Virus record (IMG/VR): IMGVR_UViG_3300028864_000017
Direction: 5' to 3' (one strand)
DNA length: 64,000 nucleotides
From: a virus
Taxonomy: Duplodnaviria; Caudoviricetes
In this document: piece after piece, positions 4,083 through 58,506 of the stretch
Position numbering within the stretch: position 1 is the first letter of the stretch
Layout of the letters: the number at the start of each line of letters is the position of its first letter
Position numbers and translations under genes: made by a program
The notes under the pieces: model-generated
Told to the model about the DNA's origin: nothing
The model's input: only the letters and a program-made list of their open reading frames with translations
The model's database searches: none

Positions 4083-4868
4083 ATGAAAAAAATAAAAACA
4101 TTTGACGAACATAATTCTACAGTTCAATCAAAAGTACCTTTTACTAAGCAAACAATGAAATTAGACATTGATTGGAGAGCAGCAAAGGATTTTGATTTAC
4201 ACTACTATTATAAATGGGTGTGTGATCATCGTATTAAAAATGATGAAAATGGCTGTAATTTACCAAATGGCGCTGATTCTTGGGTAGCTGACACATCTAA
4301 ATTGGACTATATGAGTAAACAGAAAAAAGATTGGTTGTATGAGTATGCATTATCAAAAGGTGGTAGCCCAAAACCAGCATTTACTATTAAAAAAGACACA
4401 AAAATTAAAGTTGTCGATGAAAAATACAATTTGATAATTGAAATTTTAGATGGTCCATATGCTGGTGAAAAATTTGAAGCAAAGTTATCTGATTTTAGAA
4501 CTTGCTTGGTTGGTGAAGCTAAAGATGAAAATTTAGTTGTTTCTAAGTATAAGATATTCTTAAACGGAGAACCATTGAAATCAAAATATTATACTAACAT
4601 GGGAAGAATCAAGCTTGCTTTACTAAATGCATTTGGGTTTCAAAATAGTAATGATAATGATAATGATAATGAAGATGGTGTGCCATATTACATTTCGGAT
4701 TCTAGTTCAACAACATTAAGTAAAAATGATTGTAAAAATGTTAAAATCATTAGATATGACAATAATTCAAAAGTTGGAATTCCTGTTGATTTTAATGTTC
4801 TGGAATTTTATGTTGAATATTTGGAAAAAAAAGAGTTAAAAAAAGACTCAAAAAAATATAATTTATAA
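4083..4868 (+). CDS. hypothetical protein with N-terminal KTFDE and C-terminal KKYNL tags
   Basis: MKKIKTFDEH...DSKKYNL. Confidence 0.8.
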   Translation: MKKIKTFDEHNSTVQSKVPFTKQTMKLDIDWRAAKDFDLHYYYKWVCDHRIKNDENGCNLPNGADSWVADTSKLDYMSKQKKDWLYEYALSKGGSPKPAFTIKKDTKIKVVDEKYNLIIEILDGPYAGEKFEAKLSDFRTCLVGEAKDENLVVSKYKIFLNGEPLKSKYYTNMGRIKLALLNAFGFQNSNDNDNDNEDGVPYYISDSSSTTLSKNDCKNVKIIRYDNNSKVGIPVDFNVLEFYVEYLEKKELKKDSKKYNL

Positions 4869-4870
4869 AA

Positions 4871-5452
4871 ATGAAAGTAACCACAGAAGATTGTATTAAC
4901 TCAATAGTTAAATATCTAATTGAGAAAGAAAATAATTTCACAAATTCAAAAGATTGGAAAAGAATTTCAAAATCAGGAAAAGATGATAATATCATACGCA
5001 AATTTCAAAACAAAGTTTCAAATAGAGAAATATATGTAAGATCTAGTGACTCTGAAATTTTTGAAGTTAGTGATAAAGATTTTAGTATGATTACAAATTT
5101 TAAAAATTTCACAGGTGGAAATAGTGGTAAAATTAAAACAATTGATAAAATTAAAAGTCAAAAAGAATTTTCTGAATATCTATTAGATGAATATCAATCA
5201 GGTAAATGGATAACCACCAAAGTAGACAAAGAAGATAGTGATGCATATGCTAATTTGATTTATCAGGGTGTTGATGAATTTAGGTCTGATTTGGAATCTT
5301 GGGGTGGCTGGATGTGTGATGATATTGAAAAATATTTAGACGAACCAAATTTGAAGATTGAAAATCATTATCTAAAAGACTCTGATATTGTAGAAATTGA
5401 TTCAATATCTTTTGGAGATAAACTTCTGTTGTGGAGTCTACACGAAGATTAA
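4871..5452 (+). CDS. hypothetical protein
   Basis: 193-aa ORF, 2 nt after previous stop. Confidence 0.75.
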   Translation: MKVTTEDCINSIVKYLIEKENNFTNSKDWKRISKSGKDDNIIRKFQNKVSNREIYVRSSDSEIFEVSDKDFSMITNFKNFTGGNSGKIKTIDKIKSQKEFSEYLLDEYQSGKWITTKVDKEDSDAYANLIYQGVDEFRSDLESWGGWMCDDIEKYLDEPNLKIENHYLKDSDIVEIDSISFGDKLLLWSLHED

Positions 5453-5490
5453 TTCTGATAATTAAAAAATCATAAATTTATTTATGATTT

Positions 5491-5521
5491 TTTGTTTATA
5501 TAATTATTATTAGTATCTTTG
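5491..5521 (+). promoter_or_regulatory. Bacteroidota sigma-A promoter
   Basis: TTTG (5491-5494), 19 nt, TATCTTTG (5514-5521). Confidence 0.7.
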
Positions 5522-5544
5522 TATTCAATTAAAACATAAACAAT

Positions 5545-5859
5545 ATGAAACAGTTAAAAGACACAAAAAAAATTACGCTTGCAACATTAAAAGGATTTGC
5601 AAAAAGAAATAGTGAAAATCTATTCGTAAAAAATATTAGTTCATTTGATGGAATGACAGATTGTGTTGAAAGTTGTAATGATAATAGTTGGAAAGAAACT
5701 TCTATTATTGACAAAACTAATTATTACAAAACTGGTATCAACGGAGTTTATACAGTAGGTAGTAGTCGTGATTATTTCACGTTACATGAAGATTCAATTT
5801 ATGTTGGTATTGAAGTATATAACTCTTGTGGTAATGCTATTTTAGCTGTAAAAAAATAA
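5545..5859 (+). CDS. hypothetical phage protein
   Basis: 104 aa, directly after promoter. Confidence 0.8.
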   Translation: MKQLKDTKKITLATLKGFAKRNSENLFVKNISSFDGMTDCVESCNDNSWKETSIIDKTNYYKTGINGVYTVGSSRDYFTLHEDSIYVGIEVYNSCGNAILAVKK

Positions 5860-5864
5860 ATAGT

Positions 5865-6089
5865 ATGATAATACCTGCAAATGAATTAAAGGCTGGAGAC
5901 TTAGTAAGACCTTTTATAAGTGAAAGAACAATGAAAAGAACAAAAAAAACTATTCTTATTGTTGATGGTCCATTTGAATGTAATGGAGCATTTAAAGATT
6001 ATTACATCACTTTTAAAACAGATGATCCTGATAATGATAATGAACTTTTCATTCATTCAGATGAAACAGTTGAAGTTATTGAGAAATAA
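5865..6089 (+). CDS. small KOW/SH3-like hypothetical protein
   Basis: LKAGDLVR start motif, 74 aa. Confidence 0.65.
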   Translation: MIIPANELKAGDLVRPFISERTMKRTKKTILIVDGPFECNGAFKDYYITFKTDDPDNDNELFIHSDETVEVIEK

Positions 6090-12587: not shown

Positions 12588-12941
12588 ATGAAAATAAGAA
12601 GTGGATTTGTGAGTAACTCAAGTAGCTCATCTTTTGTAATTTTATTACCTGAGAATTTTCTTGAAATTGTTGATTATGATAAAATTACTGATGGTGATGA
12701 AGATTTTCCATTAGACACGTTTAAAGAATTATTGAAAAAACTTATTGATGAAAATGGATTATATAATTATGATATTTATGAGTATATAATATCTAATGAC
12801 GTGGAAGATTATGATTTACCTGATAGTTTAAATGATGTTATTCGTCCATACATAATTGCAGAGGTTGAAGGTGGTCCAGATGAAGGACAAATTATTATTG
12901 CTGATACTAAAAAAATCAATGAAATTTTAAAAAAGAAATAA
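12588..12941 (+). CDS. FVSNSSSSSF-family protein 1
   Basis: Starts MKIRSGFVSNSSSSSF. Confidence 0.85.
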   Translation: MKIRSGFVSNSSSSSFVILLPENFLEIVDYDKITDGDEDFPLDTFKELLKKLIDENGLYNYDIYEYIISNDVEDYDLPDSLNDVIRPYIIAEVEGGPDEGQIIIADTKKINEILKKK

Positions 12942-12945
12942 AATT

Positions 12946-13386
12946 ATGAAAGTAAGAAATGGATTTGTAAGTAATAGTAGCAGTAGTTCTTTTATTGTTA
13001 CTATTAAAAATGGAGAAAAAATATCAAAAAATATTCTTATGAAGTTATTTGATTTAGACGAAAATTCTATATTATTCAACTTTGCAAATGGATTATCGGA
13101 TTGGATGATTAACAATCTTAAAGAAATGAGCATTAAAGATATATTTGAAAATTATTGTGATTCAGGTAAGAATTTATCAGATGAAGAAATGATAGATGAA
13201 ATAATTGAACAAGGATATCCTAATATATCTAGAGAAGATTTGTTAAGAATATTAAGAAAAGAATATCGTTATTATGAAGGTTCAGCATCTGATGATTCTG
13301 GAGATGGATTAGAAACTTATTTATGTGAAACAGGAATAAATGTCAACAATGATTTAATTCACATTCAAAGTGGAGGAGATTATTAA
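12946..13386 (+). CDS. FVSNSSSSSF-family protein 2
   Basis: Starts MKVRNGFVSNSSSSSF. Confidence 0.85.
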   Translation: MKVRNGFVSNSSSSSFIVTIKNGEKISKNILMKLFDLDENSILFNFANGLSDWMINNLKEMSIKDIFENYCDSGKNLSDEEMIDEIIEQGYPNISREDLLRILRKEYRYYEGSASDDSGDGLETYLCETGINVNNDLIHIQSGGDY

Positions 13387-13403
13387 AAAAATAAATTAAA
13401 AAT

Positions 13404-13796
13404 ATGAAAATAAGAAATGGATTTGTAAGTAATTCAAGTAGTTCATCATTTGTAGTAAGAGGAATTAAACTTACAATATATGATTTAGCAAAATGCTTGA
13501 ATATAAAAAATGAAGAATTTGAAGAAATTGAAGATGATTATGATAAATTTGAATTTTTTTCAAATAAACTTGATGATGAATTTAGAATTGAAGCAGATGG
13601 TAATTATTTTGGAGAAAAAGATTACAATACTCTTATTGTAGGTGATTCACTAGGTGGATTAGAAGATGGAGAAGTAACAGAATTTAAAGATCGTACAACA
13701 GAAGAAGATGATGCATTACGTCAAAAATTTGAAAAATATGGAATTACAGGAGTAATTAACACATATATTCAAATGGTGAGTAACGACAATTATTAA
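13404..13796 (+). CDS. FVSNSSSSSF-family protein 3
   Basis: Starts MKIRNGFVSNSSSSSF. Confidence 0.85.
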   Translation: MKIRNGFVSNSSSSSFVVRGIKLTIYDLAKCLNIKNEEFEEIEDDYDKFEFFSNKLDDEFRIEADGNYFGEKDYNTLIVGDSLGGLEDGEVTEFKDRTTEEDDALRQKFEKYGITGVINTYIQMVSNDNY

Positions 13797-13824
13797 ACCA
13801 GTTTAAAATAGAATTAATAATATT

Positions 13825-14271
13825 ATGACAAATAATCAAACTCATAACATATTTTACTTTCTTGGAATTATGATAAATGATAATAAAATTATAAATACAT
13901 CACCTGATTATTTAATAGAAAAAGCTAATGCATTTTTTAGTAAATTAGGAAAAGATGAATTTATATCTAATATTAAAAATATATATCGTTCTCAAAAACT
14001 AGATTACACTACTGAATTTTGGTTATCATATTGTCAAATATGGCATATTGATAAAAACAATTTTGAATTGTTAAATATTATTAATTTTATATTAAATTCA
14101 AATATTACTGATACTAAAAATGTGATTCAAAACTTTAAAAAATATATTGGAGATATTAATATCATTCCTGATTTAGATTTGAGTTTTAAATTGCATCCAA
14201 CATTATTAATACATATAAATAAAAGTATTGATTTTGATAGTAGATATTTAAAGTTATTATCACTAAAATAA
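13825..14271 (+). CDS. hypothetical protein
   Basis: 148 aa, ends SRYLKLLSLK. Confidence 0.7.
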   Translation: MTNNQTHNIFYFLGIMINDNKIINTSPDYLIEKANAFFSKLGKDEFISNIKNIYRSQKLDYTTEFWLSYCQIWHIDKNNFELLNIINFILNSNITDTKNVIQNFKKYIGDINIIPDLDLSFKLHPTLLIHINKSIDFDSRYLKLLSLK

Positions 14272-14291
14272 AAACAAAAGAAAATAAAAGA

Positions 14292-15329
14292 ATGACAAAT
14301 AATATAGCGTTAACGTATGATGATATTCAACTTATACCATTTTATAGTGAAGTAGAACATAGAAATAAAATTTCATTAACAACAAAACTATCTACAAATT
14401 ATGAGTTGATGATACCATTGGTAGCATCACCTATGGATACCGTTTGTGAGCATGAAATGGCGTTTAAAATGTTTCAATTAGGAGGAGTAGGATGTATTCA
14501 TAGATTCATGACTATTGAAGAACAAGTTGATGAAATCAAAAAATTAAAAAAATTAATTGATTATAGTTTATATAATCCTTTTATTAATGTACAGAATATT
14601 CCAATAATGGCATCAGTAGGCTCAAATGGAGATTTTTTAGAAAGGTCTAAATCATTAATAGAATCTGGAGTAAATGTAATTCTTATTGATGTTGCTCATG
14701 GACATCACATAAATGTCAAAAAAGCGATTAAAGAAATAAAAGGATTGAATTTAGGAGTGGATATAATTGCAGGTAATATTGCAACTGCAGAAGCCGCAAT
14801 TGATTTGCAAAATTGGGGAGCTGATGGACTAAGATGTGGTATTGGTGGCGGAAGTCTTTGTACAACTAGAATCAAGACAGGATTTGGTGTTCCAAATGTT
14901 ACAAGTTTAATAGAAATTTTAAATGTTGCAAAAGTACCAGTTATGGCTGATGGTGGAATTAGAACAAGTGGAGATATATCAAAGGCTCTTGCATTAGGTT
15001 CATCTACTATTATGTTAGGCTCACTATTAGCTGGAACAGAAGAATCACCAGGAAAGGTTATAGAGAGTCCTAATGGCTTATATAAACGATATAGAGGCTC
15101 TGCATCATTAGAAACAAAAACTGTTCATGGTCAAGCGGAAAGAAATGTGGAAGGAGAGTCAACAACAATTCCATTTAAAGGAGGAGTCAAATTTGTAATT
15201 GAAGGATTAATAAACGGTGTTCGTTCTGCATTATCTTATGGAGGTGCAAAAAATTTATCTGAATATCACCCTAAATGGTATCAAGTAACAAATGCTGGAA
15301 TTGCTGAAGCAAGACCACATTTATTATAA
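14292..15329 (+). CDS. IMP dehydrogenase / GMP reductase family protein (no CBS domains)
   Basis: LTYDDIQL, SPMDTV, IDVAHGH, GNIAT, GIGGGSLCTTR catalytic loop, ADGGI, YRGSAS, NVEG. Confidence 0.92.
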   Translation: MTNNIALTYDDIQLIPFYSEVEHRNKISLTTKLSTNYELMIPLVASPMDTVCEHEMAFKMFQLGGVGCIHRFMTIEEQVDEIKKLKKLIDYSLYNPFINVQNIPIMASVGSNGDFLERSKSLIESGVNVILIDVAHGHHINVKKAIKEIKGLNLGVDIIAGNIATAEAAIDLQNWGADGLRCGIGGGSLCTTRIKTGFGVPNVTSLIEILNVAKVPVMADGGIRTSGDISKALALGSSTIMLGSLLAGTEESPGKVIESPNGLYKRYRGSASLETKTVHGQAERNVEGESTTIPFKGGVKFVIEGLINGVRSALSYGGAKNLSEYHPKWYQVTNAGIAEARPHLL

Positions 15330-15347
15330 AAATAAAAACATGATAAC

Positions 15348-15809
15348 ATGAAAATAAGAAATGGATTTGTTAGTAATTCATCATCAAGTAGTTTTATTGT
15401 TGGCATAGCCAAGATTAATGATTACAATGAATTTACACAATACACAAAAGATAATAATATTAAATTAGATTATGATGTTAAAGTATTAACCTTATCTAAT
15501 ATTAAAGAAAGTACTAATTATGATATACATTTTAATAACAATAAAATTTATGTAGATTCATTTCAAACAGATGCAAATTTAGATATTAAAGATTGTAAAG
15601 ATGAAGATTTATTTTTAGTTGTTAATATATGTAATAATGAAGGTGATTCAGATTTTATGACATCTGATTATGATGATATTGATTATGATATTGATATGTC
15701 ATTCTTTAATAAAAATGATAAAAACGTTTATAATGCATTTTATAGTAATAAATCGGGATTGGACTTAAATAAATCAGAAGTTTATTTTGGTGCAGGTCGA
15801 AATGGATAA
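15348..15809 (+). CDS. FVSNSSSSSF-family protein 4
   Basis: Starts MKIRNGFVSNSSSSSF. Confidence 0.85.
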   Translation: MKIRNGFVSNSSSSSFIVGIAKINDYNEFTQYTKDNNIKLDYDVKVLTLSNIKESTNYDIHFNNNKIYVDSFQTDANLDIKDCKDEDLFLVVNICNNEGDSDFMTSDYDDIDYDIDMSFFNKNDKNVYNAFYSNKSGLDLNKSEVYFGAGRNG

Positions 15810-15830
15810 AAAATAAAATAAAAATAAAAT

Positions 15831-16133
15831 ATGAAAATAAGAAATGGATTTGTTAGCAATTCATCATCAAGTAGTTTTGTTATAATTGGAGTCAAAAGAT
15901 TAGATTGTACAGAAGAAGAAGTTGAAAATGGATTTGAAAATGGAATAGAAGCACTTGATGTTGAAATGTCTAATTATGGATATATTGTTGGATATATAAT
16001 TTCAAATGGTGAAGAATTAAATTCTAGTATAACACCAATATCTGTTATAATGGAAAAGTCAAAAATAGTAGCAGAAACATTAAATGTTGATATTAGTGAA
16101 GTAGAATTAATAACTGGAACTAGATATTGTTAA
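15831..16133 (+). CDS. FVSNSSSSSF-family protein 5
   Basis: Starts MKIRNGFVSNSSSSSF. Confidence 0.85.
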   Translation: MKIRNGFVSNSSSSSFVIIGVKRLDCTEEEVENGFENGIEALDVEMSNYGYIVGYIISNGEELNSSITPISVIMEKSKIVAETLNVDISEVELITGTRYC

Positions 16134-16150
16134 TATAAATAATATAAAAT

Positions 16151-16789
16151 ATGAAAATAAGAAATGGATTTGTAAGTAACTCATCATCTAGTAGCTTTAT
16201 AATTTCTAACAACAATTTTGAAAGTTTACGTGATCTTGCTACGCATATGATTAAATCGAAATATGATGATTATATGGGTAATACTGGAAGAGATAAACAA
16301 TATGATAAATATAGAATAAAAGAGCATGATTTATACATTAATGGGCTAAAAAATATAGACAAAAATCAGGCAATAACATTTCAAAGTTGTAACTATGATA
16401 CTTATATAAAAAAAGTAGCAGATTGCTATTTAGTTTCTACTAGTAATAACGAAGATTGGGATTTATGGCAATTTAGCACTAAATTAACTGATGATGCAAA
16501 ATCAGAATTACGAATATTATTACAAAAATATAAGGAAGATGATGATGAATGGTGCAGCATAACCAGTCTACTTGATGGTGATAGTGAATTTTATTCTTTT
16601 GATAATGATTATTATTCTTTAGATTATCAATTATTAGGAAAAGAAAGTTATGAATCTTGTCCAATATGTGATAAAAAAGGAGATTTTAATTATATGTGGG
16701 AAACAAAAAAGCACGGTCTTATATGTCCAGTATGTAATACAGTATATAAAAGAAAAGATAAATTAGATGAAATAACTAAAAATTTATAA
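16151..16789 (+). CDS. FVSNSSSSSF-family protein 6 with C-terminal Zn ribbon
   Basis: Same N-terminal motif; CPIC...CPVC; ends KRKDKLDEITKNL. Confidence 0.85.
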   Translation: MKIRNGFVSNSSSSSFIISNNNFESLRDLATHMIKSKYDDYMGNTGRDKQYDKYRIKEHDLYINGLKNIDKNQAITFQSCNYDTYIKKVADCYLVSTSNNEDWDLWQFSTKLTDDAKSELRILLQKYKEDDDEWCSITSLLDGDSEFYSFDNDYYSLDYQLLGKESYESCPICDKKGDFNYMWETKKHGLICPVCNTVYKRKDKLDEITKNL

Positions 16790-16861
16790 TATTTTTGATT
16801 AAAATATTATAATATCAAATATTTTTTATAATTTTGTAAATAAAAATAAAAATAAAAATAT

Positions 16862-17053
16862 ATGTTAGAATTATTAAAATATGCTACTTCAGATTTTTGG
16901 ACATTTATATTTTGTTTTTTCATAATTTCTGTAATTGGAAGTTTTATAGTGGAAATATTCAACGCAATTTTTAAAAAGTCAGAGATTAGAATAGATTTAA
17001 CAGATAAAAAAGATAAACCAGATAAAACAGATAAAACAGATAATAAAAAATAG
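16862..17053 (+). CDS. small membrane protein
   Basis: One TM helix followed by DK(P/T) repeats. Confidence 0.65.
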   Translation: MLELLKYATSDFWTFIFCFFIISVIGSFIVEIFNAIFKKSEIRIDLTDKKDKPDKTDKTDNKK

Positions 17054-17054
17054 T

Positions 17055-17579
17055 ATGAAAATAAGAACTGGATTTGTAAGCAATTCATCATCAAGTAGTT
17101 TTGTAGTTATCTTCCCATTTGAACCGAAATGTATGGAAGATGTAAAAAAAATTCTTTTTAGGGAAGAACAGTTATATTATGGAGATGAAAATTATTCTGT
17201 AAATAAAGTTTCAGAAACTATCTGGAATGATATATGTGATCAAACTAAGAATGATATTGATAAGGCAAGTGAAATAATATCGAATGGATATTTGGAAATG
17301 GAAAATGATGCTCCTGATTTTGATGATTTTAAATATATTGAAGATAGAAATGAAAGATGGGAAGCATTTGCAGAAGCTAAAGATAAATATTCAAAAAAAT
17401 TACTTAAAGAATTTTTCAATGTAAGAAAATTAAAACTTCAAGTTATTGATGGTAAAGAGGTAAATGATGGAGTGATGTATTGTTTTAGTTTTTCAGATAA
17501 TGATGGAGAATATTATAGTGCACTTGAACATGATGGAATATTCAACAAATTAAAAAATATAACTGTCAATTGTCATTGA
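17055..17579 (+). CDS. FVSNSSSSSF-family protein 7
   Basis: Starts MKIRTGFVSNSSSSSF. Confidence 0.85.
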   Translation: MKIRTGFVSNSSSSSFVVIFPFEPKCMEDVKKILFREEQLYYGDENYSVNKVSETIWNDICDQTKNDIDKASEIISNGYLEMENDAPDFDDFKYIEDRNERWEAFAEAKDKYSKKLLKEFFNVRKLKLQVIDGKEVNDGVMYCFSFSDNDGEYYSALEHDGIFNKLKNITVNCH

Positions 17580-17581: not shown

Positions 17582-17617
17582 AAATAAAAAAGCTTCTAAA
17601 AAGAAGCTTTTTTTATT
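17582..17617. terminator. bidirectional terminator
   Basis: aaataaaaaagcttct-aaaa-agaagcttttttattt between convergent genes. Confidence 0.75.
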
Positions 17618-17855
17618 TCCAATTTCTTTTTGCTCTAATAGCAAAATTAATTTCTTGTTCTTGATCAATAATACTCTTTGGAACATCTTTGCCTTCATCT
17701 TGATATTTCTTACTTCTTTTTTTAAGTGATGATAATTCACTCTCCAACTCATCAATAGTTTTACCTGCATGTTCACCAGTATGTTTAACTTTAACTTTCT
17801 CATCCCATTTTTCATTCATAGATTTATAATCTATAAAATTTTTCATCATTTTCAT
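17613..17855 (-). CDS. small hypothetical (putative virion) protein
   Basis: MKNFIDYKSMNE start resembles capsid-targeting motif. Confidence 0.7.
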   Translation of the reverse strand: MKMMKNFIDYKSMNEKWDEKVKVKHTGEHAGKTIDELESELSSLKKRSKKYQDEGKDVPKSIIDQEQEINFAIRAKRNWK

Positions 17856-19578: not shown

Positions 19579-19583
19579 CAATT

Positions 19584-19664: not shown

Positions 19665-19691
19665 AAAAATAATAAATTAAAAGTAAATATC

Positions 19692-19826: not shown

Positions 19827-19852
19827 GTTAAAAAATTATTATGTGAATAATA

Positions 19853-20290: not shown

Positions 20291-20296
20291 CAAAAA

Positions 20297-44941: not shown

Positions 44942-45412
44942 TTATACATTAAATTTTTTTGATTGTTTAAAAATTTCATATCTTTCAGGGTTAATATTAG
45001 TTATTATTTCGTCCAAATCATTAACATCATCTGATTTACCTTGAAATGAAAAATATGATTTACTACCACCAGAAATTATATGAAATGAATATATTAAGAA
45101 TTGAATGAAAATCATAAAAACTTTCAAATATTTATATTCTAAATCTACCCAAGAATCACGAATCCATATTATATAATAATTATCAGAATCTAAACAAAAA
45201 CTAATATCTAAATTATATATTAACTGTTTTTCATCTTTAGTAAAGAATTCTATATTACAAGAATAATCTTTTTTTGATATTGTTGGTATATCCTTATATA
45301 TTAAACAATCAAAATCTTTAAAATTAGTATCAGATGTAAATGTATCACATATAGATTTTGCTAAATTATTAGTTTTTAATTTTTGAGAATAGTCACTATA
45401 ATTTTTTATCAT
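44942..45412 (-). CDS. tagged hypothetical protein (ends KKFNV)
   Basis: MIKNYSDY...QSKKFNV. Confidence 0.75.
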   Translation of the reverse strand: MIKNYSDYSQKLKTNNLAKSICDTFTSDTNFKDFDCLIYKDIPTISKKDYSCNIEFFTKDEKQLIYNLDISFCLDSDNYYIIWIRDSWVDLEYKYLKVFMIFIQFLIYSFHIISGGSKSYFSFQGKSDDVNDLDEIITNINPERYEIFKQSKKFNV

Positions 45413-45417: not shown

Positions 45418-45843
45418 TTAATCTTTTCTACCTGATACATATCTACCTTTTCTAGTTTTGTTTATATTAGAAAATGTTATGAATTTATCATCTATCTTAA
45501 TATCAAAGCTATAAAGGTTTGTATCATTACTTAATAATTGTTTAATTTTTTCTACTTTAATATGTGATCTTGATTCAAAGTCATAAATTAAAAATTTTAG
45601 TCCATCGTTCTCACTAAGACGATCTTTAAATTCTGGTAATCTTAAAAATTCCATTATTCTTTCAACTAATTTGCCAAATTTATCAGATCCTTTTCGATAT
45701 TCTCCAAAATATTGCTTGAAGTTCTTTATCCTTGGTTCCTCCCCATAATTAGTTCCAGCAAAAGGAATTTTACCTTCTGGCCCTGCAACAGATGGAAAAT
45801 AAAAATTATGATCTGTTGATTTAGTATCAAAGCTTGTAATCAT
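45418..45843 (-). CDS. hypothetical protein
   Basis: 141-aa ORF. Confidence 0.75.
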   Translation of the reverse strand: MITSFDTKSTDHNFYFPSVAGPEGKIPFAGTNYGEEPRIKNFKQYFGEYRKGSDKFGKLVERIMEFLRLPEFKDRLSENDGLKFLIYDFESRSHIKVEKIKQLLSNDTNLYSFDIKIDDKFITFSNINKTRKGRYVSGRKD

Positions 45844-46181
45844 TATAAATTATATTTTTTTGAGTTTTTTAATATTTTCATTTCCTTTATAAAAGGTTTA
45901 ATATCATCAAAATTTACCAGTAATGTATCCTTTTCATATTTAAAATTTTCTCCGCATCTTAGAATAAGATCAAACATATCTTTATAATCAATATAAGATT
46001 CTTTTGTAATGGCTACACGAGTTTTAGTGTTTATTTCATAAAAAATATTATCAGATGTATCTATATAAGAATAGCATGTCATTTGATACAATTTTAACGA
46101 ATCATCCCATAAATCTAAAAATAATTCTTTAGCTTCATCAGCTAAATTTTTACCTTCACTTTGAAATCTATCTATTTCCAT
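45843..46181 (-). CDS. tagged hypothetical protein (ends KKYNL)
   Basis: MEIDRFQSE...NSKKYNL. Confidence 0.75.
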   Translation of the reverse strand: MEIDRFQSEGKNLADEAKELFLDLWDDSLKLYQMTCYSYIDTSDNIFYEINTKTRVAITKESYIDYKDMFDLILRCGENFKYEKDTLLVNFDDIKPFIKEMKILKNSKKYNL

Positions 46182-46614: not shown

Positions 46615-46947
46615 TTATACATTAAATTTTCTTGAATTTAGCAATAGTTTAATATTATCAATAAGTTTATTAAAATCTGTTATGCTTGCATACATAACGC
46701 CAGAAATTAATTGAAATCTTGAATCAGAATCGTTTAAAACATTACACAGTTCATTATATTCTACAAAATTATCACTCGTAATAGACATACTAATATTAAA
46801 AGATAGATTAAATCTGACATTAGTATCTATTTTAAAACTTGAAATTCCTAATTTATCGTCCCATAATTCTAAAAACAAAGATTTAACTTTATTTACAAAA
46901 TTGTCATAATCTTCTCTATTATTTTCATTAAATTTTTCTATTTTCAT
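46615..46947 (-). CDS. tagged hypothetical protein (ends RKFNV)
   Basis: MKIEKFNE...NSRKFNV. Confidence 0.75.
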   Translation of the reverse strand: MKIEKFNENNREDYDNFVNKVKSLFLELWDDKLGISSFKIDTNVRFNLSFNISMSITSDNFVEYNELCNVLNDSDSRFQLISGVMYASITDFNKLIDNIKLLLNSRKFNV

Positions 46948-46948: not shown

Positions 46949-48364
46949 TTACCATTTTTTTCCTTTTGTGAATGGTATTTTCATATCTTTCAAATCTTCT
47001 GGTCCTTTTTTAATATCTTCTCCAGTTGGTGTAGTGTGAAAATAATTGTTAGTATCAGTTGCAATCTTAACAGAATCATCTATAATTGCATTTGGTCCAA
47101 GCTTACACATTCTTATAACAGAATTTCCTTTTACTCTACAGTTAATCATACATTGATATAAATAACAATCACTAACTTCTGAATCTAAATCAATCGTAGC
47201 ACTTTCAATTTTAGAATTCAATATATCAGTATCAGAAATTTCTCCGCCATGAATAGTACCATTAACTAATTCTGATGAGATAAAATTACAGCTTGTATAT
47301 CTACCATTATTCATAGAGCATTCAATAAAATCTAAATCATATAAATCAAATATTGTTTTAAAAGTTGCATCAACCAATTCAATTCTATTAACTTCAGTAT
47401 CTAAATTTATAATACAATCTTTAAGATTATAAATATTTCTAACCATGTCAAATATCTTAGTATAAATAGTATCATAATAAGCTTTCACTATACTATAATC
47501 ATTCAATTTATCTACTTGAATATCAATTGTTGGAAATTCTGCAATAAAATCATTATAATTTGAAAATGTTTTGAATATATTAATATTTTCAAATAAATAT
47601 TTTTGTAATTTTTTTAAATCATTATCATCCAATTTAGCATCACAACAATTCCAAGTAATTGCCATAAAATAATCCATTAATGATAATATCTCAGATGATT
47701 TCTGATTATAATTATCTCCTCCAATATATCTCCACTCTAATCTTTGTCCAGATGCTTCAATATTTTCTGCTGGTATAAAATTTATTCCATAATATTTAGT
47801 ATTTCCTATTTGTACATTATTCTGTAATATATCTACTGCATTAGTAGAAAAATCAAAACCTTTGAATGGAATTAATGTTTTAACACTTTTTGCATAGATA
47901 TTATTTTTTCTTTCAGGAAAAAAGTTGTATATTCGTTCTTCATCTACAGATAAAATTAATTTTAACTTATTTAAATTATCTAATACTTTACCATTACCTA
48001 TATCATCAAAAGATATATTGATGTGAATAGAGCATTTTTCATCAGTTCTAGCATATTTATCAAGAACTTTTAAAATTTTCAATAAAATTATTTTAGAATT
48101 TACATAAGGTATTGGTCCAGTAATTAATTCTACAAGATCAGCACCACCTGATAAATCTGGTTCAATTTTAAAATTATTTTCATCTGGAGTAAAAGTTGAG
48201 TGATATTTTCTATAACCATGTACCTGAATAGGAGCAAGAGTATTATTTAATAATTCAATTAATTTAAAATATGATTTATCGGTATAAAATTCAAATTCAA
48301 ACCCTATAACAGAATTTTTTAATTTGTTAAAATCTGTAATATATTCATTAGAGTAGATTTTCAT
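46949..48364 (-). CDS. putative amidoligase (COOH-NH2 ligase family) with C-terminal beta-helix-like region
   Basis: IGFEFEF, IEPDLS, ELITGP, CSIHINIS, KYYGINF, LEWRYIGG motifs. Confidence 0.8.
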   Translation of the reverse strand: MKIYSNEYITDFNKLKNSVIGFEFEFYTDKSYFKLIELLNNTLAPIQVHGYRKYHSTFTPDENNFKIEPDLSGGADLVELITGPIPYVNSKIILLKILKVLDKYARTDEKCSIHINISFDDIGNGKVLDNLNKLKLILSVDEERIYNFFPERKNNIYAKSVKTLIPFKGFDFSTNAVDILQNNVQIGNTKYYGINFIPAENIEASGQRLEWRYIGGDNYNQKSSEILSLMDYFMAITWNCCDAKLDDNDLKKLQKYLFENINIFKTFSNYNDFIAEFPTIDIQVDKLNDYSIVKAYYDTIYTKIFDMVRNIYNLKDCIINLDTEVNRIELVDATFKTIFDLYDLDFIECSMNNGRYTSCNFISSELVNGTIHGGEISDTDILNSKIESATIDLDSEVSDCYLYQCMINCRVKGNSVIRMCKLGPNAIIDDSVKIATDTNNYFHTTPTGEDIKKGPEDLKDMKIPFTKGKKW

Positions 48365-48448
48365 TAATATTATATTATATTTTCAAGTATATATAAAAAA
48401 AAATTCATCAAAAAATTAATATATACTTTCACAAAAAACAAGGAAATT

Positions 48449-49171
48449 ATGGAAATAAAAAGATTTAACGAAGAAATAAAAACAGTACCATTCTCAAAAA
48501 TTGATAAATGGAGTGTTAATAATATACTACAGCCAAAAATTAAAATAGGCAATAAAGAATTAGATTTAAAATTAGGTTCTAAAGTTTTAGAGTTGTTTAA
48601 TAATTACGGATTTGATATTAATGTAAATGTATTTGATTGGATGAAAAAACAGCATCTGTTACTGTCAGATGAAACAAATTTTATTGAAAATAGAGTTGAA
48701 GTTGGAAAAAAACAGTCATGGGAAGATTTTCTAGATGATAATGGATACGAATATGATGATTTACCTGAAAATGAACAAAAGAAGATAGACGAGGAATTTG
48801 AAAATAGAGGATTCGTTAATGATGAAGCAGAAATAGAATTCTCTGTATTTTTACCAGAAAATTTAGAAAATATTGAATATGCAGCATTGGCAGATGCTTC
48901 TGTATATTTGAAAATTCTATCTGATAGTGAATTAAATGGAGTTTTAAATGGTAATACAGATTATCGTATATTATCAGATGAACCATTTGGATTTAAAAAA
49001 TTTTTAAACTTTAAAAAAATAAAAATAACTAATAATAATATTGAAGAAGTTCCAAGTATTGAACATAGACTATACAAAGATAGTAAAGTGTTTGAGATAT
49101 TTAAAAGAGAGCTTGGAGGAGATCAAAATTTTAGAAATTTTTTCAATGAATGGTTATCATTAATAAAATAA
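48449..49171 (+). CDS. hypothetical (putative virion) protein
   Basis: MEIKRFNEE start. Confidence 0.75.
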   Translation: MEIKRFNEEIKTVPFSKIDKWSVNNILQPKIKIGNKELDLKLGSKVLELFNNYGFDINVNVFDWMKKQHLLLSDETNFIENRVEVGKKQSWEDFLDDNGYEYDDLPENEQKKIDEEFENRGFVNDEAEIEFSVFLPENLENIEYAALADASVYLKILSDSELNGVLNGNTDYRILSDEPFGFKKFLNFKKIKITNNNIEEVPSIEHRLYKDSKVFEIFKRELGGDQNFRNFFNEWLSLIK

Positions 49172-50077: not shown

Positions 50078-50607
50078 AAACATGCTATAGCGGAGGTGCA
50101 TCTGGATCAGATTATATATTTGAGCAAGAATCAATTAAAAAAGGAATAAAAGTCATATCTTTTTCTTTTGAAGGACATAACACAAAATCAGATAATAAAT
50201 ATATTCTATCAACAAATCAGATAAAAGAAGGTTATGAACATATAAAAATTGCTAATGAAAGACTAAATAGAAACATAAAGAATATTTCTTCATATGTAAA
50301 ATATCTAATATCAAGAGATTGGTTTCAAGTAAAATGTTCTGATACAATATTTGCAATTGGTACTCTTGAAAATGAAACTAATGTCAGAGGTGGAACAGGT
50401 TATGCTTGTTCTTGTGCGATTGACAATCACAAACCAGTATATTTATTTGAGCAAAATGTGAACCAGTGGCATTATTTTGATTATGAGTCAAACGCATTTG
50501 AAATATATGAAGGTATTCCAAAATTAACTGAAAAATTTGCAGGAATTGGAACAAGAAATATAAATGAAAATGGAATGAATGCAATAATAAGTTTATTTAA
50601 ATATTAA
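50074..50607 (+). CDS. SLOG-superfamily-like protein
   Basis: SGGASGSD, GGTGYA...AIDNHKPVYLFEQ, FAGIGTR. Confidence 0.6.
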   Translation: MKTCYSGGASGSDYIFEQESIKKGIKVISFSFEGHNTKSDNKYILSTNQIKEGYEHIKIANERLNRNIKNISSYVKYLISRDWFQVKCSDTIFAIGTLENETNVRGGTGYACSCAIDNHKPVYLFEQNVNQWHYFDYESNAFEIYEGIPKLTEKFAGIGTRNINENGMNAIISLFKY

Positions 50608-50935
50608 ATTTATCAGATAAATTTTTAATTTTCTGTTCTTTAATTTCATCAGGTGTAGCTAATATTAAATCTGCATCAGAAAACGGCATAGTATAATCAA
50701 AGTTACTAGTATAATATTTTTTTATATAATCTAATATTTCAATAGGAATATTTTCAAATTTGACATTATAATATTTAAAATTGTCATGTTTATCATAATC
50801 TATGGATTCAATTTTTCCGATATTATTCTCAAAAAAGTTTTTCAAATCTTTTGAATATGTCAATTCATGACATCTTACATAATCACCTACGTTAAATCCA
50901 GAATTTAAATCTTCATAATGTTTTAAAAATTTCAT
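50597..50935 (-). CDS. KOW-like tagged protein (ends DKFNI)
   Basis: MKFLKHYED...FNVGDYVRC...NNIGKI...DKFNI. Confidence 0.7.
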   Translation of the reverse strand: MKFLKHYEDLNSGFNVGDYVRCHELTYSKDLKNFFENNIGKIESIDYDKHDNFKYYNVKFENIPIEILDYIKKYYTSNFDYTMPFSDADLILATPDEIKEQKIKNLSDKFNI

Positions 50936-50997
50936 ATTAAAAATTATTTTATAATAATTATATATAAAAAAATCCACAATAAATTGTGGATTTTTTA

Positions 50998-51246
50998 TTA
51001 CCAAGCATCATTACTTTCTGGTAAATAATAAATATCATCCAAATAAGGACTAGAACAATTTTTATTTTTGTTTTCTATCATTTCAGATTCACTAACAATG
51101 ATAAAATTATAAAAACCATTATGAATACTTTCTTCTAATAAATTTGAAAGATCTTCATCAGATAAATTATAAAGATCTGATTGTTTTTTAATAATTGCAT
51201 TAATTGCGAATTCTCTTGTTACTATATGTGTTGTTTTTATGCTCAT
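50998..51246 (-). CDS. hypothetical protein
   Basis: 82-aa ORF. Confidence 0.7.
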   Translation of the reverse strand: MSIKTTHIVTREFAINAIIKKQSDLYNLSDEDLSNLLEESIHNGFYNFIIVSESEMIENKNKNCSSPYLDDIYYLPESNDAW

Positions 51247-53185: not shown

Positions 53186-54547
53186 TTAAAATTGAAAGAT
53201 TGAATTCAAAACTGACAATCTTTTATTTATTGTAGGTAATCCAATTGGTTCAAGAAACCTATTTACGATGTGAAGCATTGTCACATCAAATTGTTCATCA
53301 TAATCTATTTTAACACCTTCTTTTTCACATATTTCATATGGATATAATCCTCTTTGATATGCAAATACGCTATTTTTAACATGATTACAATAAAAATATT
53401 TTATACGTCCTCCTCTAATATTATCATACTTTGTTTTATATTCAGAGTTTTTATTTAATAAGTAATTGTGTAAAGCTGCAGCTTTAACTGCAAAGTGAGC
53501 ACCCTTAACACATAAAACATCAGTAACATCATCAATAACTTTAATTGGATAATTAGTGCAACTTGAAGTCATACTAATATCTTCAATATTAGCCATCATG
53601 AATTGTTTTTTCAAATCTTTCACAATTAGTAATATTTTTCTAATATTCAAATTATTAGGATTAGAAAATATATATCTCAAAAACTCATAAATATTTTCTC
53701 TAACAAATGGAGGGGTAGATGATTTAACAATTTCAACACCTTTTGGATAAAAATAACTCATACTTTCATAAAATAAGCCATCTTCCCAAGCTACATTATT
53801 TATATAATGCTTTTTTTGTATGTGTAATGCTGATCTATTAATTGTTTCTAATTCAAAGTTGTGTATATTCTTAACTCCATATCTTGCAGCATATTCATCT
53901 AGCCAACCATTATATTTTTTTTCTATAAAAACTCTATCCATATGAAGAATGAAGTCTAATTCATCTCCATTAAATCCACATGACTTTATCATAGGAGCGA
54001 ATGAAATATATAATGAATCAGTATCGCCGTAAATTGTAATTGGAACATCTTTTGGTAACTGAGTTACATTAGAGAAATCATGAATAAATCTACTAAATAA
54101 TACATTATAACCATTTAATTCTTTTTTATCTTCAACTAAATCATTACGATAGTAATTCAATTTTTCTAATAAATTATCAACTGATTCATATTTATAATGA
54201 ATATTATCTCCATTTCTATCTAATAAATAAAAACTACCATCTTTTTCAGCAATATATTCTAATCCAAGTAGTTGATGAGTCTTTACATCTAAGTGCCATT
54301 CTTTATAGAAATATGTTTCTATTTTTTTAAGCATATAATTTATAACATCACGTCCTTGAGCAGTAATAGCATTTGCAATATGAGAATTTGACAATACAAA
54401 TTTAGGATGAGCGAATGCTCCATATGTACCGTTAATAACCAATTTCAAAGCTAATTGCATTGCTTTTGCTCTATCATAATCAGCCTTAGTTACATCAATT
54501 TTTGTTTTTAATTCTGCTATTTTATCTCTCTTTTCTTGTGCTGTCAT
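53186..54547 (-). CDS. family B DNA polymerase, C-terminal subunit (split gene)
   Basis: KLVINGTYG (motif B), YGDTDS (motif C), KKHY, KGVEIVKSSTP; no exonuclease domain or motif A. Confidence 0.9.
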   Translation of the reverse strand: MTAQEKRDKIAELKTKIDVTKADYDRAKAMQLALKLVINGTYGAFAHPKFVLSNSHIANAITAQGRDVINYMLKKIETYFYKEWHLDVKTHQLLGLEYIAEKDGSFYLLDRNGDNIHYKYESVDNLLEKLNYYRNDLVEDKKELNGYNVLFSRFIHDFSNVTQLPKDVPITIYGDTDSLYISFAPMIKSCGFNGDELDFILHMDRVFIEKKYNGWLDEYAARYGVKNIHNFELETINRSALHIQKKHYINNVAWEDGLFYESMSYFYPKGVEIVKSSTPPFVRENIYEFLRYIFSNPNNLNIRKILLIVKDLKKQFMMANIEDISMTSSCTNYPIKVIDDVTDVLCVKGAHFAVKAAALHNYLLNKNSEYKTKYDNIRGGRIKYFYCNHVKNSVFAYQRGLYPYEICEKEGVKIDYDEQFDVTMLHIVNRFLEPIGLPTINKRLSVLNSIFQF

Positions 54548-55840: not shown

Positions 55841-56154
55841 AAATTAAATTTGTTTGTTTGTATTATATATTCTAATTCTTCTTTATTTTTTGATATATAT
55901 TTTATTTCATCTAATGACATATTTCTTTCATTGTGCGAGAAATATTTTTCTAAATTTTTTGGTATTTCTTCATAATATATCACATATGGTCCCATGAAAT
56001 CTGTATCATATCTAATATATTTACCTATATTATTTGATGTGAAATTAATAACGTCATAATAAGAATATAACTCTGATTCATTACATACTACCCAATCTCC
56101 AATTTCTGGCTCATCTTTACTAATTGTTTCAAACAATTTAAATTTAGTTATCAT
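55837..56154 (-). CDS. KOW-like tagged protein (ends NKFNL)
   Basis: MITKFKLFE...EIGDWVVC...NNIGKY...NKFNL; paralog of 50597-50935. Confidence 0.75.
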   Translation of the reverse strand: MITKFKLFETISKDEPEIGDWVVCNESELYSYYDVINFTSNNIGKYIRYDTDFMGPYVIYYEEIPKNLEKYFSHNERNMSLDEIKYISKNKEELEYIIQTNKFNL

Positions 56155-56516
56155 ATATTGAATTTAGTGGTATTTTTTTTAAATTCAATATCGTCATAGT
56201 ATTCTTGAATTTCTTCTGGAGTACATTCTAATTTACCCATAAATATATTATATTCATTACTTTCTGATGTTGGATACCAATACCATGTATATGAGTCTTC
56301 ATGTTCTGGATGTTTTACTAATGAAATAGTTTCAAAATTAGTATTAGTATCTTTAGTTGAAAAAACTTTATTCTTACGAAGCCTTATCCAATCGATAATT
56401 TGTTTATCTGGCATTCCAATTTTTTTAAGAGAGATATAAAAATCTGGCATTTTTACTGGAATATTCCAAACTAATTTTTTATCAGAATCTTCAAATAGTT
56501 TAAATTTAGTTATCAT
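56151..56516 (-). CDS. tagged hypothetical protein (ends TKFNI)
   Basis: MITKFKLFED...TTKFNI. Confidence 0.75.
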   Translation of the reverse strand: MITKFKLFEDSDKKLVWNIPVKMPDFYISLKKIGMPDKQIIDWIRLRKNKVFSTKDTNTNFETISLVKHPEHEDSYTWYWYPTSESNEYNIFMGKLECTPEEIQEYYDDIEFKKNTTKFNI

Positions 56517-56562
56517 GTCATTATATATAAAAAACATTTTTAGAAAATAAATATTAATATAT

Positions 56563-56889
56563 ATGAATATGGAAAATTCTAACTTAACTAAGCAAGCAAG
56601 ATCTGATATATTCTCTGAATTATATCCAATTATAATTTTTTATATCAATAAAGGAGCTACATCACAAGCATTGAAAAAATATTATAGAAACTCTAAAAGG
56701 TTTAATGATATTTTAGATGATATAAAAAACAAAGGTGCTAATATAATAACAGATGATATTGAGTATAAAAATTTAGTAAGAACTGTATTAAATGATATAT
56801 TAGATGATTTAATAGCAAAAGAAAAAGATGATGAATATAAAAAACTAACTCACATAAAAGAATTCAACTCATATGAATATAAAAAATAA
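56563..56889 (+). CDS. hypothetical protein
   Basis: 108-aa ORF. Confidence 0.75.
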   Translation: MNMENSNLTKQARSDIFSELYPIIIFYINKGATSQALKKYYRNSKRFNDILDDIKNKGANIITDDIEYKNLVRTVLNDILDDLIAKEKDDEYKKLTHIKEFNSYEYKK

Positions 56890-56898
56890 TTATCAAAA

Positions 56899-57435
56899 AT
56901 GATAAATGAAATAAATAATATAAAAAAATTCACAGAATGGTCTCCATTATATGAATTTCAAATACCTAATGTAAAATTGGATGAATTTTTCTATAACATA
57001 AAATTAGCTACTGCTAAATATACTAAAACTCTTGTTGATTATTTTAAAACATATGAACAATATATTGATTTAATGGATAAAAAGAAACATCAATTCAAAA
57101 TTAATGATATGTCAGGAGATATTTTAGGTACAGAAAAAGTAGTATTTAAATGTAGTATTTTTGATAAAGAAGATATTGAAAATATTAGAGAAAATTTAGT
57201 AACTTTTGCATTATCAGAATTCTATTCTGATATACCTGATTCATTAAACGTTTTTGGTATTATGATGAAACCTTTATCGTTTATTGATAAAGAAAAAGTT
57301 AAATATTCATTTCAACAAACAATAACATTTGACACAACAATAAACGTCATATCAACATTAGGTAATATGGTATATGACAATGAATTCAATGGCTATTATA
57401 TTTGGACTGACAAAAAAGACAAATTAACTGAATGA
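56899..57435 (+). CDS. hypothetical (putative virion) protein
   Basis: IKKFTEW near the start. Confidence 0.75.
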   Translation: MINEINNIKKFTEWSPLYEFQIPNVKLDEFFYNIKLATAKYTKTLVDYFKTYEQYIDLMDKKKHQFKINDMSGDILGTEKVVFKCSIFDKEDIENIRENLVTFALSEFYSDIPDSLNVFGIMMKPLSFIDKEKVKYSFQQTITFDTTINVISTLGNMVYDNEFNGYYIWTDKKDKLTE

Positions 57436-57971
57436 TAATTAAAAGATTTTTTCAATTAAATGAAAGTGTAATTCGGGAAGATAAATTATCTAAAATAGTA
57501 GATAGGTATGATGAATTATTAGAATATACAATTGAATATTTAAAAATATATGAGGAAATAGAAGATATAGTTAAAATAACTGATTTTTGGGATGATAATA
57601 TGATAGCATATACTGACAGTAATGAAAATGAAGAAGAATTTGAAATATCAAAAAATAGAATGATAGAATATAAGAAATATTTAAAAGAAAATGGAATAAA
57701 TAATTATAAAAAAATAATATCAGATAGAAATGATACATTTGGATGGATTACTGAATATTTAAAATTTAATAATTTATGTAAAGATTCTGAATATGTTGAT
57801 TTTTATACTTATACTGAAACTGGAAATGATGCATTAGAAATAGGAATAACAGACAATGATGTATTCAATCTTAGCAGGGATTACACATTCGATAAAGATG
57901 AATATCAATCATTAATATATTTCATAAATAATATAGAATCTTATGACTCAACAAAAAAATTTAATATTTGA
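57432..57971 (+). CDS. tagged hypothetical protein (ends KKFNI)
   Basis: MIIKRFFQLNE...STKKFNI. Confidence 0.75.
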   Translation: MIIKRFFQLNESVIREDKLSKIVDRYDELLEYTIEYLKIYEEIEDIVKITDFWDDNMIAYTDSNENEEEFEISKNRMIEYKKYLKENGINNYKKIISDRNDTFGWITEYLKFNNLCKDSEYVDFYTYTETGNDALEIGITDNDVFNLSRDYTFDKDEYQSLIYFINNIESYDSTKKFNI

Positions 57972-58228
57972 TTATGATAGAAAAAGATATGCAAATTAAA
58001 GAATTATATGATTTAAAACATATAAATGATAATATAATAACAGGATTTGATTATGAAGAAGGACTGATGACAAGATCATTATCTAATTTGATGTTTCAAA
58101 ATGAAACAACAAGCACATTTCTTGATAAAATTAAAAAATTATTGATTTATACAATAGAATCTAACTTAATAGTTAGAAATTTTTTCAATTATACAGTACA
58201 CAAATACTACAATAAACATAATAATTAA
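57968..58228 (+). CDS. hypothetical protein
   Basis: 86-aa ORF. Confidence 0.7.
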   Translation: MIMIEKDMQIKELYDLKHINDNIITGFDYEEGLMTRSLSNLMFQNETTSTFLDKIKKLLIYTIESNLIVRNFFNYTVHKYYNKHNN

Positions 58229-58230
58229 AT

Positions 58231-58506
58231 ATGGAAATTAGAAAATTTGAAAAATACGAAAATAAAATTGAGCCTTTTATACAAGATCCTGAATACAGAC
58301 TAATGCAGATTCATTCAAATGGAGACTCAGAAGAAATTGAGAGTGATGTAAATCCATTTGATTTAAATGAAATTGTTCAATTATACTTAGATTATAAAGG
58401 TTATGATAATAATATGTGGATAAAAAAAGTAACAGAAGAGATTGTAGACTTGAATATGATTCCTGAAATAAAAATACACTTATCTTCAAAAAAATATAAC
58501 ATATAA
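58231..58506 (+). CDS. tagged hypothetical protein (ends KKYNI)
   Basis: MEIRKFEKYE...SSKKYNI. Confidence 0.75.
   Translation: MEIRKFEKYENKIEPFIQDPEYRLMQIHSNGDSEEIESDVNPFDLNEIVQLYLDYKGYDNNMWIKKVTEEIVDLNMIPEIKIHLSSKKYNI

Follow-up and report, generated by a model that had tools for sequence, protein, structure and literature searches.

In bacteriophage T4, a leader of about ten residues at the N-terminus suffices for the encapsidation of any protein, being removed after a Glu residue (PMC7697877, PMC8442874). In phage P1, the first 30 residues of DarB direct the loading of this protein into the head (PMC9024508), and the head of a giant phage is known to comprise about 50 proteins (PMC5694885). 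The present analysis deals with a 64,000 nt stretch of DNA from a virus of the Caudoviricetes (hereafter the window), corresponding to bases 9000-72999 (minus strand) of the 143,429 bp IMG/VR viral record IMGVR_UViG_3300028864_000017. Twelve of its genes encode proteins that end exactly in K[YF]N[ILV] (the C-tag), most of which also begin with a short common motif (the N-tag). A very large, lineage-specific class of huge-phage proteins bears this strongly non-random, two-ended label at the peptide level, and the motif looks like a sorting label. A preliminary description of the window had read it as a two-address system of virion loading with a T4-like leader. This reading is supported in part: the modular two-ended label on unrelated bodies has been confirmed, while the likeness to the T4 leader and a proposed set of virion proteins bearing the N-tag only have not.

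The two-ended label and the proteins that bear it

All twelve open reading frames (ORFs) originally listed carry K[YF]N[ILV] directly before the stop codon, and no further window ORF of at least 50 aa ends in this way. Judging from the internal rate in window ORFs (7.8e-4 per residue), only about 0.1 terminal occurrences would be expected. A genome-wide count revealed a class larger than had been claimed, with 28 C-tagged genes among about 216 on the whole record and 103 among 566 (18%, against 0.14 expected) in G001, a close relative of 330 kb which represents approximately 46% of a genome. In two further relatives, 87 and 67 DNA matches to the C-tag were detected, compared with 11 and 8 for a reversed control. 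The internal frequency in G001 (2.4-2.8e-4) equals that expected from composition (2.5e-4), the enrichment being confined to the exact terminus, and no near-terminal or fused versions occur among the G001 genes. This indicates that the free carboxyl end matters. The tetrapeptide closes an amphipathic C-terminal module of about 16 residues, with the pattern hydrophobic-E-E-hydrophobic-E-hydrophobic followed by N-[TAS]-[NK]-K-F-N-[LI]. Between orthologs the K, F/Y and N residues of the C-tag are invariant, with the last residue exchanging among I, L and V.

At the other end, the consensus is M-K-[YH]-[IL]-K-x-[FY]-E or M-I-x-x-F-K-[IL]-[FY]-E, a leader of about ten residues at Met1 which is common to otherwise unrelated proteins. 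Its core stands at residue 2 in 62 of the 566 G001 genes, where 0.05 would be expected, and Glu occupies position 8 in 65% of the N-tags, preceded three residues earlier by K, T, F or S. The two tags are strongly linked. In G001 the N-tag is found on 83 of 103 C-tagged genes and on 16 of 463 others; when a matrix trained on G001 was applied to the source record with a threshold score of at least 10, it was detected in 16 of 28 C-tagged and 3 of 188 untagged genes. Three more C-tagged genes of the record miss this threshold solely through mis-called starts. Two starts in the window need correction: the ORF called from a TTG at 50597-51004 has its N-tag-bearing start at the ATG at 50935 (MKFLKHYE), and ORF 56151-56537 opens with seven codons that in fact belong to a promoter-like element, the true start lying at 56516 (MITKFKLFE). 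The N-terminal motif ascribed earlier to all twelve proteins is thus real and linked to the C-tag, although it is weak in 44942-45412 and 45843-46181. The claim that some nine probable virion proteins carry the N-tag alone was not confirmed, as only the three untagged genes just mentioned score at least 10; a score of at least 8 is reached by seven untagged genes, none of which has virion-protein evidence, those in the window being 36091-36768, 2567-3190, 48449-49171 and 17613-17855. No significant F/Y co-variation was found between the two tags.

The bodies between these ends are diverse. An all-against-all BLAST comparison of the 28 tagged proteins of the record gave four small subfamilies and about 13 singletons, and a scan of 105 tagged proteins recognised ankyrin repeats in 11, leucine-rich repeats (LRR) in 2 and an ExoX-like C-terminal domain in 1, with nothing in the others. 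The diversity and the ankyrin repeats of the cargo had been correctly noted in the preliminary description, but its 'KOW-like' body has no Pfam support. The proteins are small (approximately 70-450 aa), Cys-poor and acidic, with a median isoelectric point (pI) in G001 of 5.3 compared with 6.7 for other genes (p = 8e-6) and a pI above 9 in 7% of them. Transmembrane-like segments are found in none of the 103 tagged proteins of G001, as opposed to 65 of its 463 other genes. By these properties, the tagged proteins look like soluble cytoplasmic binders or inhibitors.

AlphaFold models of two unrelated members, 46615-46947 and 56151-56516 (mean predicted local distance difference test, pLDDT, 87 and 85, respectively), have different topologies with the same ends. 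In both, the first 7-8 residues form a coil of low confidence (pLDDT 64 and 53) despite an alignment of 135 sequences, and a long terminal helix bears the C-tag, the last 2-3 residues being free. The coil comprises residues 1-7 in the model of 46615-46947, whose C-terminal helix (residues 92-108) ends in the tag, and residues 1-8 in that of 56151-56516, where the FNI beyond helix 100-118 is free. When the two models were compared with the folds in the PDB, AFDB clusters and BFVD, no significant match was obtained, the best being the C-terminal domain of T4 MotA (E = 0.05), and a search of the ESM Atlas with a member of the YWLxPT subfamily retrieved solely unnamed viral clusters.

The tags are kept by selection acting on the peptide. 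It had been recognised from the outset that the C-terminal motif might instead reflect an overlapping DNA signal, in which case synonymous sites and not amino acids would be conserved. Such a signal fails: the residues do not change, synonymous sites are at least as variable as the background (TTC, TAC, ATA/ATT, TTA/TTG and TAA/TGA are all used), and the spacing to the following gene is anywhere from -29 to +101 nt. The Asn codon AAC is used in 10 of 28 tags (36%), compared with 12% genome-wide (p = 0.001). A role of the ends mainly at the nucleic-acid level, as start or stop context, internal promoter or homology arms for cassette shuffling, with the peptides themselves having no role, is therefore very improbable and largely refuted. 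In keeping with such a role, the genes are tightly packed, with ATGA and TAATG overlaps, whole tagged genes differ among relatives with endpoints at the tag positions, and the codons of KFNI-TAA could mimic a promoter-like element. Nonetheless, the promoter pattern is matched by only 3 of 103 tags, for which reason the tag codons were rejected as a promoter element; the C-tag is also present ahead of convergent genes and long gaps, codons differ where amino acids do not, and the turnover of tagged genes is not significantly above that of other genes.

Promoter-like classes, source phage and distribution

Two upstream elements have been detected at the starts of transcription units, occurring at 23-24% of units compared with 2% and 7% of random 80 nt windows. 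One of them, TAnnTTTG, matches the -7 box of the Bacteroidota primary sigma factor (PMC7366714). Units led by it encode thymidylate synthase, NAD salvage, IF3, a gp32-like protein, Dam methylase, RNA repair and DnaK, functions typical of early genes, and this class supports a probable Bacteroidota host. In G001 (L020-L036), units of the same class hold Cas6, Cas12f/TnpB-like domains, IF3, microbial PARG, RtcB and polynucleotide kinase, which suggests phage-encoded CRISPR-related and RNA-repair functions among the putative early units of that relative. The other element, a T-run followed by ATATATA, lies at a nearly fixed distance from the ATG, in most cases 19-23 nt and occasionally about 5 nt upstream. 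It is found ahead of the gp13-like neck gene (42851-43603), where its occurrence served as the reference for calling the class 'structural/delayed', as well as a collagen tail-fibre-like gene, homing endonucleases, the operons of proteins of 1060, 1145, 829, 996 and 649 aa, and the tagged arrays.

The distribution of tagged genes between the two classes, counted in intergenic sequence only and with corrected starts, is highly uneven. In G001, 89 of the 103 tagged genes lie in T-run+ATATATA units and 3 in TAnnTTTG units; counted by unit, tagged genes occur in 19 of 49 units of the former class and in 1 of 51 of the latter (p = 2e-6). The corresponding numbers of tagged genes on the source record are 18 and 1, and nine of the tagged genes of the window belong to the T-run+ATATATA class. 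As judged from these elements, the tagged genes appear to be expressed with structural genes through a phage-specific, delayed promoter class and not through the host-type early class.

The source record has a G+C content of 24.5% and a CheckV completeness of 20%, which implies a genome of approximately 700 kb. The family-B DNA polymerase (polB) of the window finds its nearest relatives, at 36-49% identity, in LR756501-4 and LR745206 (735, 642, 636 and 634 kb), genomes of the Mahaphage clade with Bacteroidetes as predicted hosts (PMC7162821). The window belongs to a huge phage of the 'Mahaphage' type, with a genome of about 700 kb and a Bacteroidota host. Besides polB and the gp13-like neck/adaptor gene, it encodes a Rad50-like ATPase, a peptidase M3, a GMP-reductase-like protein and a radical-SAM protein. 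The polB ORF (53186-54547, minus strand) is only 453 aa long and its tail, LNSIFQF, resembles a clamp-binding end. In a relative (L001, 1147-3169), two ORFs (323 and 327 aa) are called in the polB-matching region, and the polymerase may be split or interrupted differently among relatives.

Between the source record and G001 there are 172 reciprocal best hits with a median identity of about 80%. Tagged genes are retained in 20 of 28 cases and other genes in 152 of 188, which is not a significant difference, and neither is that in identity (74% for tagged genes, 82% for others). Another relative, whose flanking genes are 74-93% identical, is devoid of three of the tagged genes of the window. The cassette turnover proposed earlier is therefore borne out insofar as close relatives differ by the gain or loss of entire tagged genes, but not as a rate exceeding that of other genes. 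A profile of the largest subfamily retrieved 450 representatives from 1.84 billion proteins; among the best 150 of these matches, the C-tag is retained in 139 (usually as KYNL) and the N-tag in nearly all. In arrays from other samples, 9 of 10 and 13 of 14 genes are tagged, there always with L as the last residue. Each lineage has its preferred tag variant. The tag load, expressed as DNA matches, likewise varies by lineage, from 116 in the 330 kb of G001 and 28 in the 155 kb of another relative (G007, KYNL type) to near background in the 501 kb of G006. KFN-stop matches in LR756501/2 were rejected as tags, being chance mini-ORFs with one possible exception, and a tblastn search with a family member against deposited phage genomes gave no match.

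Possible roles of the label

Taking into account that proteins resembling cytoplasmic binders are co-transcribed with structural genes and kept out of early units, loading into the virion fits best. The two ends would constitute a shared address label read by a common putative partner, through which diverse binder or inhibitor proteins would be loaded into (or onto) the assembling virion, to arrive ready-made in the next host cell. This would follow the logic of the T4 internal proteins and their capsid-targeting leader, extended by another element at the C-terminus and applied to many more proteins. Late synthesis with virion loading through the label is the best mechanism that can be put forward, though it is held tentatively and falls somewhat short of an even chance. 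A fuller version, in which the two ends form a sorting code for some hundred or more small binders and inhibitors that are loaded late into the capsid and fired with the DNA into the next Bacteroidota cell, with K[FY]N[ILV] as a second signal for ejection order, docking or ligation, has to be regarded as doubtful. If true, the phage would carry a pre-made arsenal far above any known set of phage ejection proteins, and a C-terminal signal that has no T4 counterpart.

Several features are shared with the T4 proteins IPI-III and Alt. In both systems a short leader at Met1, with M1, K2, an aromatic residue at position 7 and a Glu, occurs on unrelated, fast-evolving small proteins, and the loci show plasticity among relatives. 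In T4 the genes in question are expressed along with head genes, which may hold here as well, and the purpose would be the delivery of ready-made effectors. The differences are that T4 lacks a strictly C-terminal second tag, that it has a handful of members and not more than 100 per half genome, and that neither a gp21-type protease nor an (L/I)xE site was seen in the present system. The Dar proteins of P1 and the ejection proteins of phiKZ and SPN3US are also loaded into the head through N-terminal signals or propeptides, with paralog families among the head contents, but their signals are protein-specific, span 30 to more than 100 residues and are not accompanied by a common C-terminal tetrapeptide (PMC5694885, PMC9024508).

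A number of observations weigh against virion loading. The resemblance of the N-tag to the T4 leader, as asserted in the preliminary description, is weak: the T4 capsid-targeting sequence agrees with the N-tag only at M1, K2 and F7, and MKTYQEFIAE scores 4.1 on the N-tag matrix, a value attained by 12% of untagged proteins. The P3 residue is K, T, F or S instead of the L or I of T4, with no fit to cleavage motifs of the T4 or phiKZ type (PMC5694885). No Pfam match over threshold to the T4 protease or capsid, to a sheath or portal protein, or to an HK97-type protease or capsid (Peptidase_S77/S78 included) was obtained in the record, G001-G003, G006 and the complete 735 kb genome, these related records of 143-735 kb being incomplete or too divergent. 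The tagged proteins are acidic, unlike the highly basic internal proteins of T4 (PMC8442874), and their number, at least 103 in 46% of a genome, lies far above the head-protein count of giant phages. The T-run+ATATATA class also drives topoisomerase II, PPK2 and NUDIX genes, for which reason it is called phage-specific and delayed rather than strictly late; in the window, an early-type unit contains 4083-4868, and no element was recognised for 57432-57971 or 58231-58506. Moreover, no reader of the tags was identified. The head loading proposed earlier has gained support from the delayed promoter class common to neck and fibre-like genes, but the likeness to the T4 leader has not been borne out. 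Three adjacent tagged genes of G001 (290116-291286; L034:10116-11283) start with MKTFNQYNE, MKTFIQFNE and MKTYQQFNE, which are the N-tag variants nearest to MKTYQEFIAE.

Short, position-specific terminal peptides on unrelated cargo also serve as secretion or degradation signals in bacteria, as in the N-terminal signals of the type III secretion system, the C-terminal signals of Dot/Icm, ClpX recognition motifs and PDZ ligands, the C-terminal ones needing a free carboxyl. ClpX, for instance, recognises the basic-aliphatic C-terminus of MuA (RRKKAI) as well as N-motifs of the form polar-hydrophobic-hydrophobic-basic-hydrophobic. None of these signals is known to unite an octapeptide fixed at the N-terminus with a tetrapeptide fixed at the C-terminus. 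The tags could in this manner be a cytoplasmic handle, the variable bodies binding targets of the host or of rival phages and the constant ends docking on one intracellular machine in middle or late infection, whether an unfoldase or protease (by a degron or adaptor logic, as with poxvirus ankyrin/PRANC proteins or ClpX) or a phage compartment. Such a role is unlikely, though it accounts for much of the protein chemistry: the only bodies recognised repeatedly are binder scaffolds (ankyrin and LRR), the proteins resemble cytoplasmic inhibitors in being soluble, acidic and poor in Cys, a free C-terminal carboxyl is needed, the N-tag is unstructured in the models, and a class of this size is easier to reconcile with an adaptor library than with the contents of a head. 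A cytoplasmic role does not, however, predict co-transcription with neck and fibre genes, and no ClpP, Clp-type AAA+ or tail-specific protease (S41) was found on five related, incomplete records. The poxvirus ankyrin/PRANC (F-box-like) proteins are similarly a large viral family of variable ankyrin binders with a constant C-terminal handle, but theirs is a domain of about 60 residues, as opposed to a terminal peptide of 4-16 residues together with an N-peptide, and the host here is bacterial. No PRANC or F-box match was obtained in the 105 tagged proteins scanned, and most of their bodies are not ankyrin.

Two further explanations are both improbable. The tags could anchor the proteins on the outside of the particle, on capsid or fibres, as a library of decorations or adaptors, or else mark assembly factors for the large proteins encoded upstream. 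The arrays do lie directly downstream of, and within the units of, the 1060, 1145 and 829 aa proteins, they adjoin fibre-type genes with collagen, LRR and TIG domains, and they share a promoter class with structural genes; their ankyrin repeats and Cys-poor, acidic bodies are however typical of intracellular proteins, no Ig-like, FN3 or carbohydrate-binding bodies were found apart from one weak match to a carbohydrate-binding module, and most G001 arrays lie in a hyperplastic region of 100 kb far from recognisable structural genes. Alternatively, the N- and C-tags might pair with each other, as a clasp in cis or head-to-tail in trans, or be joined covalently, either by a Lys-Asn isopeptide bond of the HK97 or pilin kind or through ligation by the amidoligase-like enzyme encoded at 46949-48364. 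The tags rarely occur apart and both hold a K-[FY]-[EN] core, with near-invariant Lys and Glu at the N-terminal end and Lys and Asn at the C-terminal end, but the N-tag is unpaired in both AlphaFold models and the absence of F/Y co-variation also argues against pairing. As for ligation, the C-tag needs a free carboxyl end, as a substrate of a carboxylate-amine ligase (Pup/RimK-like) does, and the amidoligase-like gene (Atlas score 0.96) heads an operon of four tagged genes. Within the family of this 471 aa protein, 10 of 36 members match Amidoligase_2 (PF12224) and 28 of 36 match pentapeptide repeats; the alignment contains invariant E-x-E, H-x-N and R-x-E-x-R positions, and the protein is conserved across the whole huge-phage clade. 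The proximity of a putative carboxylate-amine ligase gene to genes whose products depend on a free C-terminus is suggestive. The gene is nevertheless equally present in the tag-less LR756501/2 and the tag-poor G006 and adjoins only one of many arrays, so that it is not a tag-specific partner, and the protein was rejected as a tag-specific reader.

Features of the window and implications

The coordinates of the tagged genes and of the associated elements are given in Table 1.

Table 1. Tagged genes, operon leader and promoter-like elements in the window.
Feature	Position	Strand	Remarks
Host-type Bacteroidota -7 box TATCTTTG (TAnnTTTG)	3229-3236	+	24 nt before the unit holding 4083-4868
Tagged protein, 261 aa	4083-4868	+	MKKIKTFDE...KKYNL; only tagged gene of the window in a host-type (early) unit
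Phage-specific promoter-like element TTTATATATA	42818-42827	+	23 nt before the gp13-like neck/head-tail adaptor gene 42851-43603
Tagged protein, 156 aa	44942-45412	-	Weak N-tag MIKNYSDYS, ...KKFNV; absent from relative L001
Tagged protein, 112 aa	45843-46181	-	MEIDRFQSE...KKYNL; paralog of 46615-46947; absent from relative L001
Tagged protein, 143 aa	46181-46612	-	MKIDKFNE...KKFNI; absent from relative L001
Tagged protein, 110 aa	46615-46947	-	MKIEKFNE...RKFNV; AlphaFold-modelled
Operon leader, 471 aa	46949-48364	-	Amidoligase_2-like N-terminal domain and C-terminal pentapeptide repeats; co-transcribed with four tagged genes
Phage-specific promoter-like element	48388-48403	-	23 nt before the 471 aa gene heading the operon with four tagged genes
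N-tag-only protein, 240 aa	48449-49171	+	MEIKRFNEE...; no C-tag, no family match
Tagged protein, 112 aa (corrected ATG)	50597-50935	-	MKFLKHYE...DKFNI; single-gene unit after a phage-specific promoter-like element
Phage-specific promoter-like element	50959-50972	-	23 nt before tagged gene 50597-50935
Tagged protein, 225 aa	54649-55326	-	MKHVKMYEE...NKYNI; last of the four-gene tagged array upstream of polB
Tagged protein, 170 aa	55328-55840	-	MIIKFNIFE...KKFNL; ankyrin-repeat body
Tagged protein, 105 aa	55837-56154	-	MITKFKLFE...NKFNL
Tagged protein, 121 aa (corrected start)	56151-56516	-	MITKFKLFE...TKFNI; YWLxPT subfamily; AlphaFold-modelled
Phage-specific promoter-like element TTTTTTATATATA	56522-56534	-	5 nt before the true start of the four-gene array; formerly misread as codons 2-6
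Tagged protein, 179 aa	57432-57971	+	MIIKRFFQLNE...KKFNI
Tagged protein, 91 aa	58231-58506	+	MEIRKFEKYE...KKYNI

Other families with conserved termini occur on the same record. Seven genes at 12588-17579 (plus strand) constitute a second family with a conserved N-terminus, sharing the near-identical leader MK[IV]R[NST]GFVSNSSSSSF and diverging afterwards. A third terminal-motif family, with one stretch in the window at 24202-24477 (plus strand) and many genes at record positions 79160-87185, is made up of small proteins with an [IV]GDxVxC start region and tails of the K-L-x-K-L type, such as ...RKEKLKKLHI and ...KLKKLKKLK. The window also holds a tRNA array at 19507-23847 (plus strand) with eight genes (Met, Tyr x2, Glu, Asn, Cys, Ile and Arg), inside which an HNH homing-endonuclease gene (20449-21273) is preceded by a phage-specific promoter-like element.

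New here are the promoter-class result, the statistics on strictly terminal position, the physico-chemical profile, the comparison of lineages and the negative test of the amidoligase-like gene. Together, the two promoter classes offer an initial map of expression timing in these uncultivated phages. If the label is a sorting signal, approximately one sixth of the otherwise 'hypothetical' proteome of the largest known phages would fall into one functional class, which a simple sequence rule would find in metagenomes, and the principle of T4 capsid targeting would be extended to a system of two signals. The 8-residue N-tag and the 4-residue C-tag would together lend themselves to protein delivery or to pulling down the reader. 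The class would in that case also constitute a very large reservoir of candidate anti-defence and host-manipulating proteins, comprising ankyrin and LRR proteins as well as novel folds.

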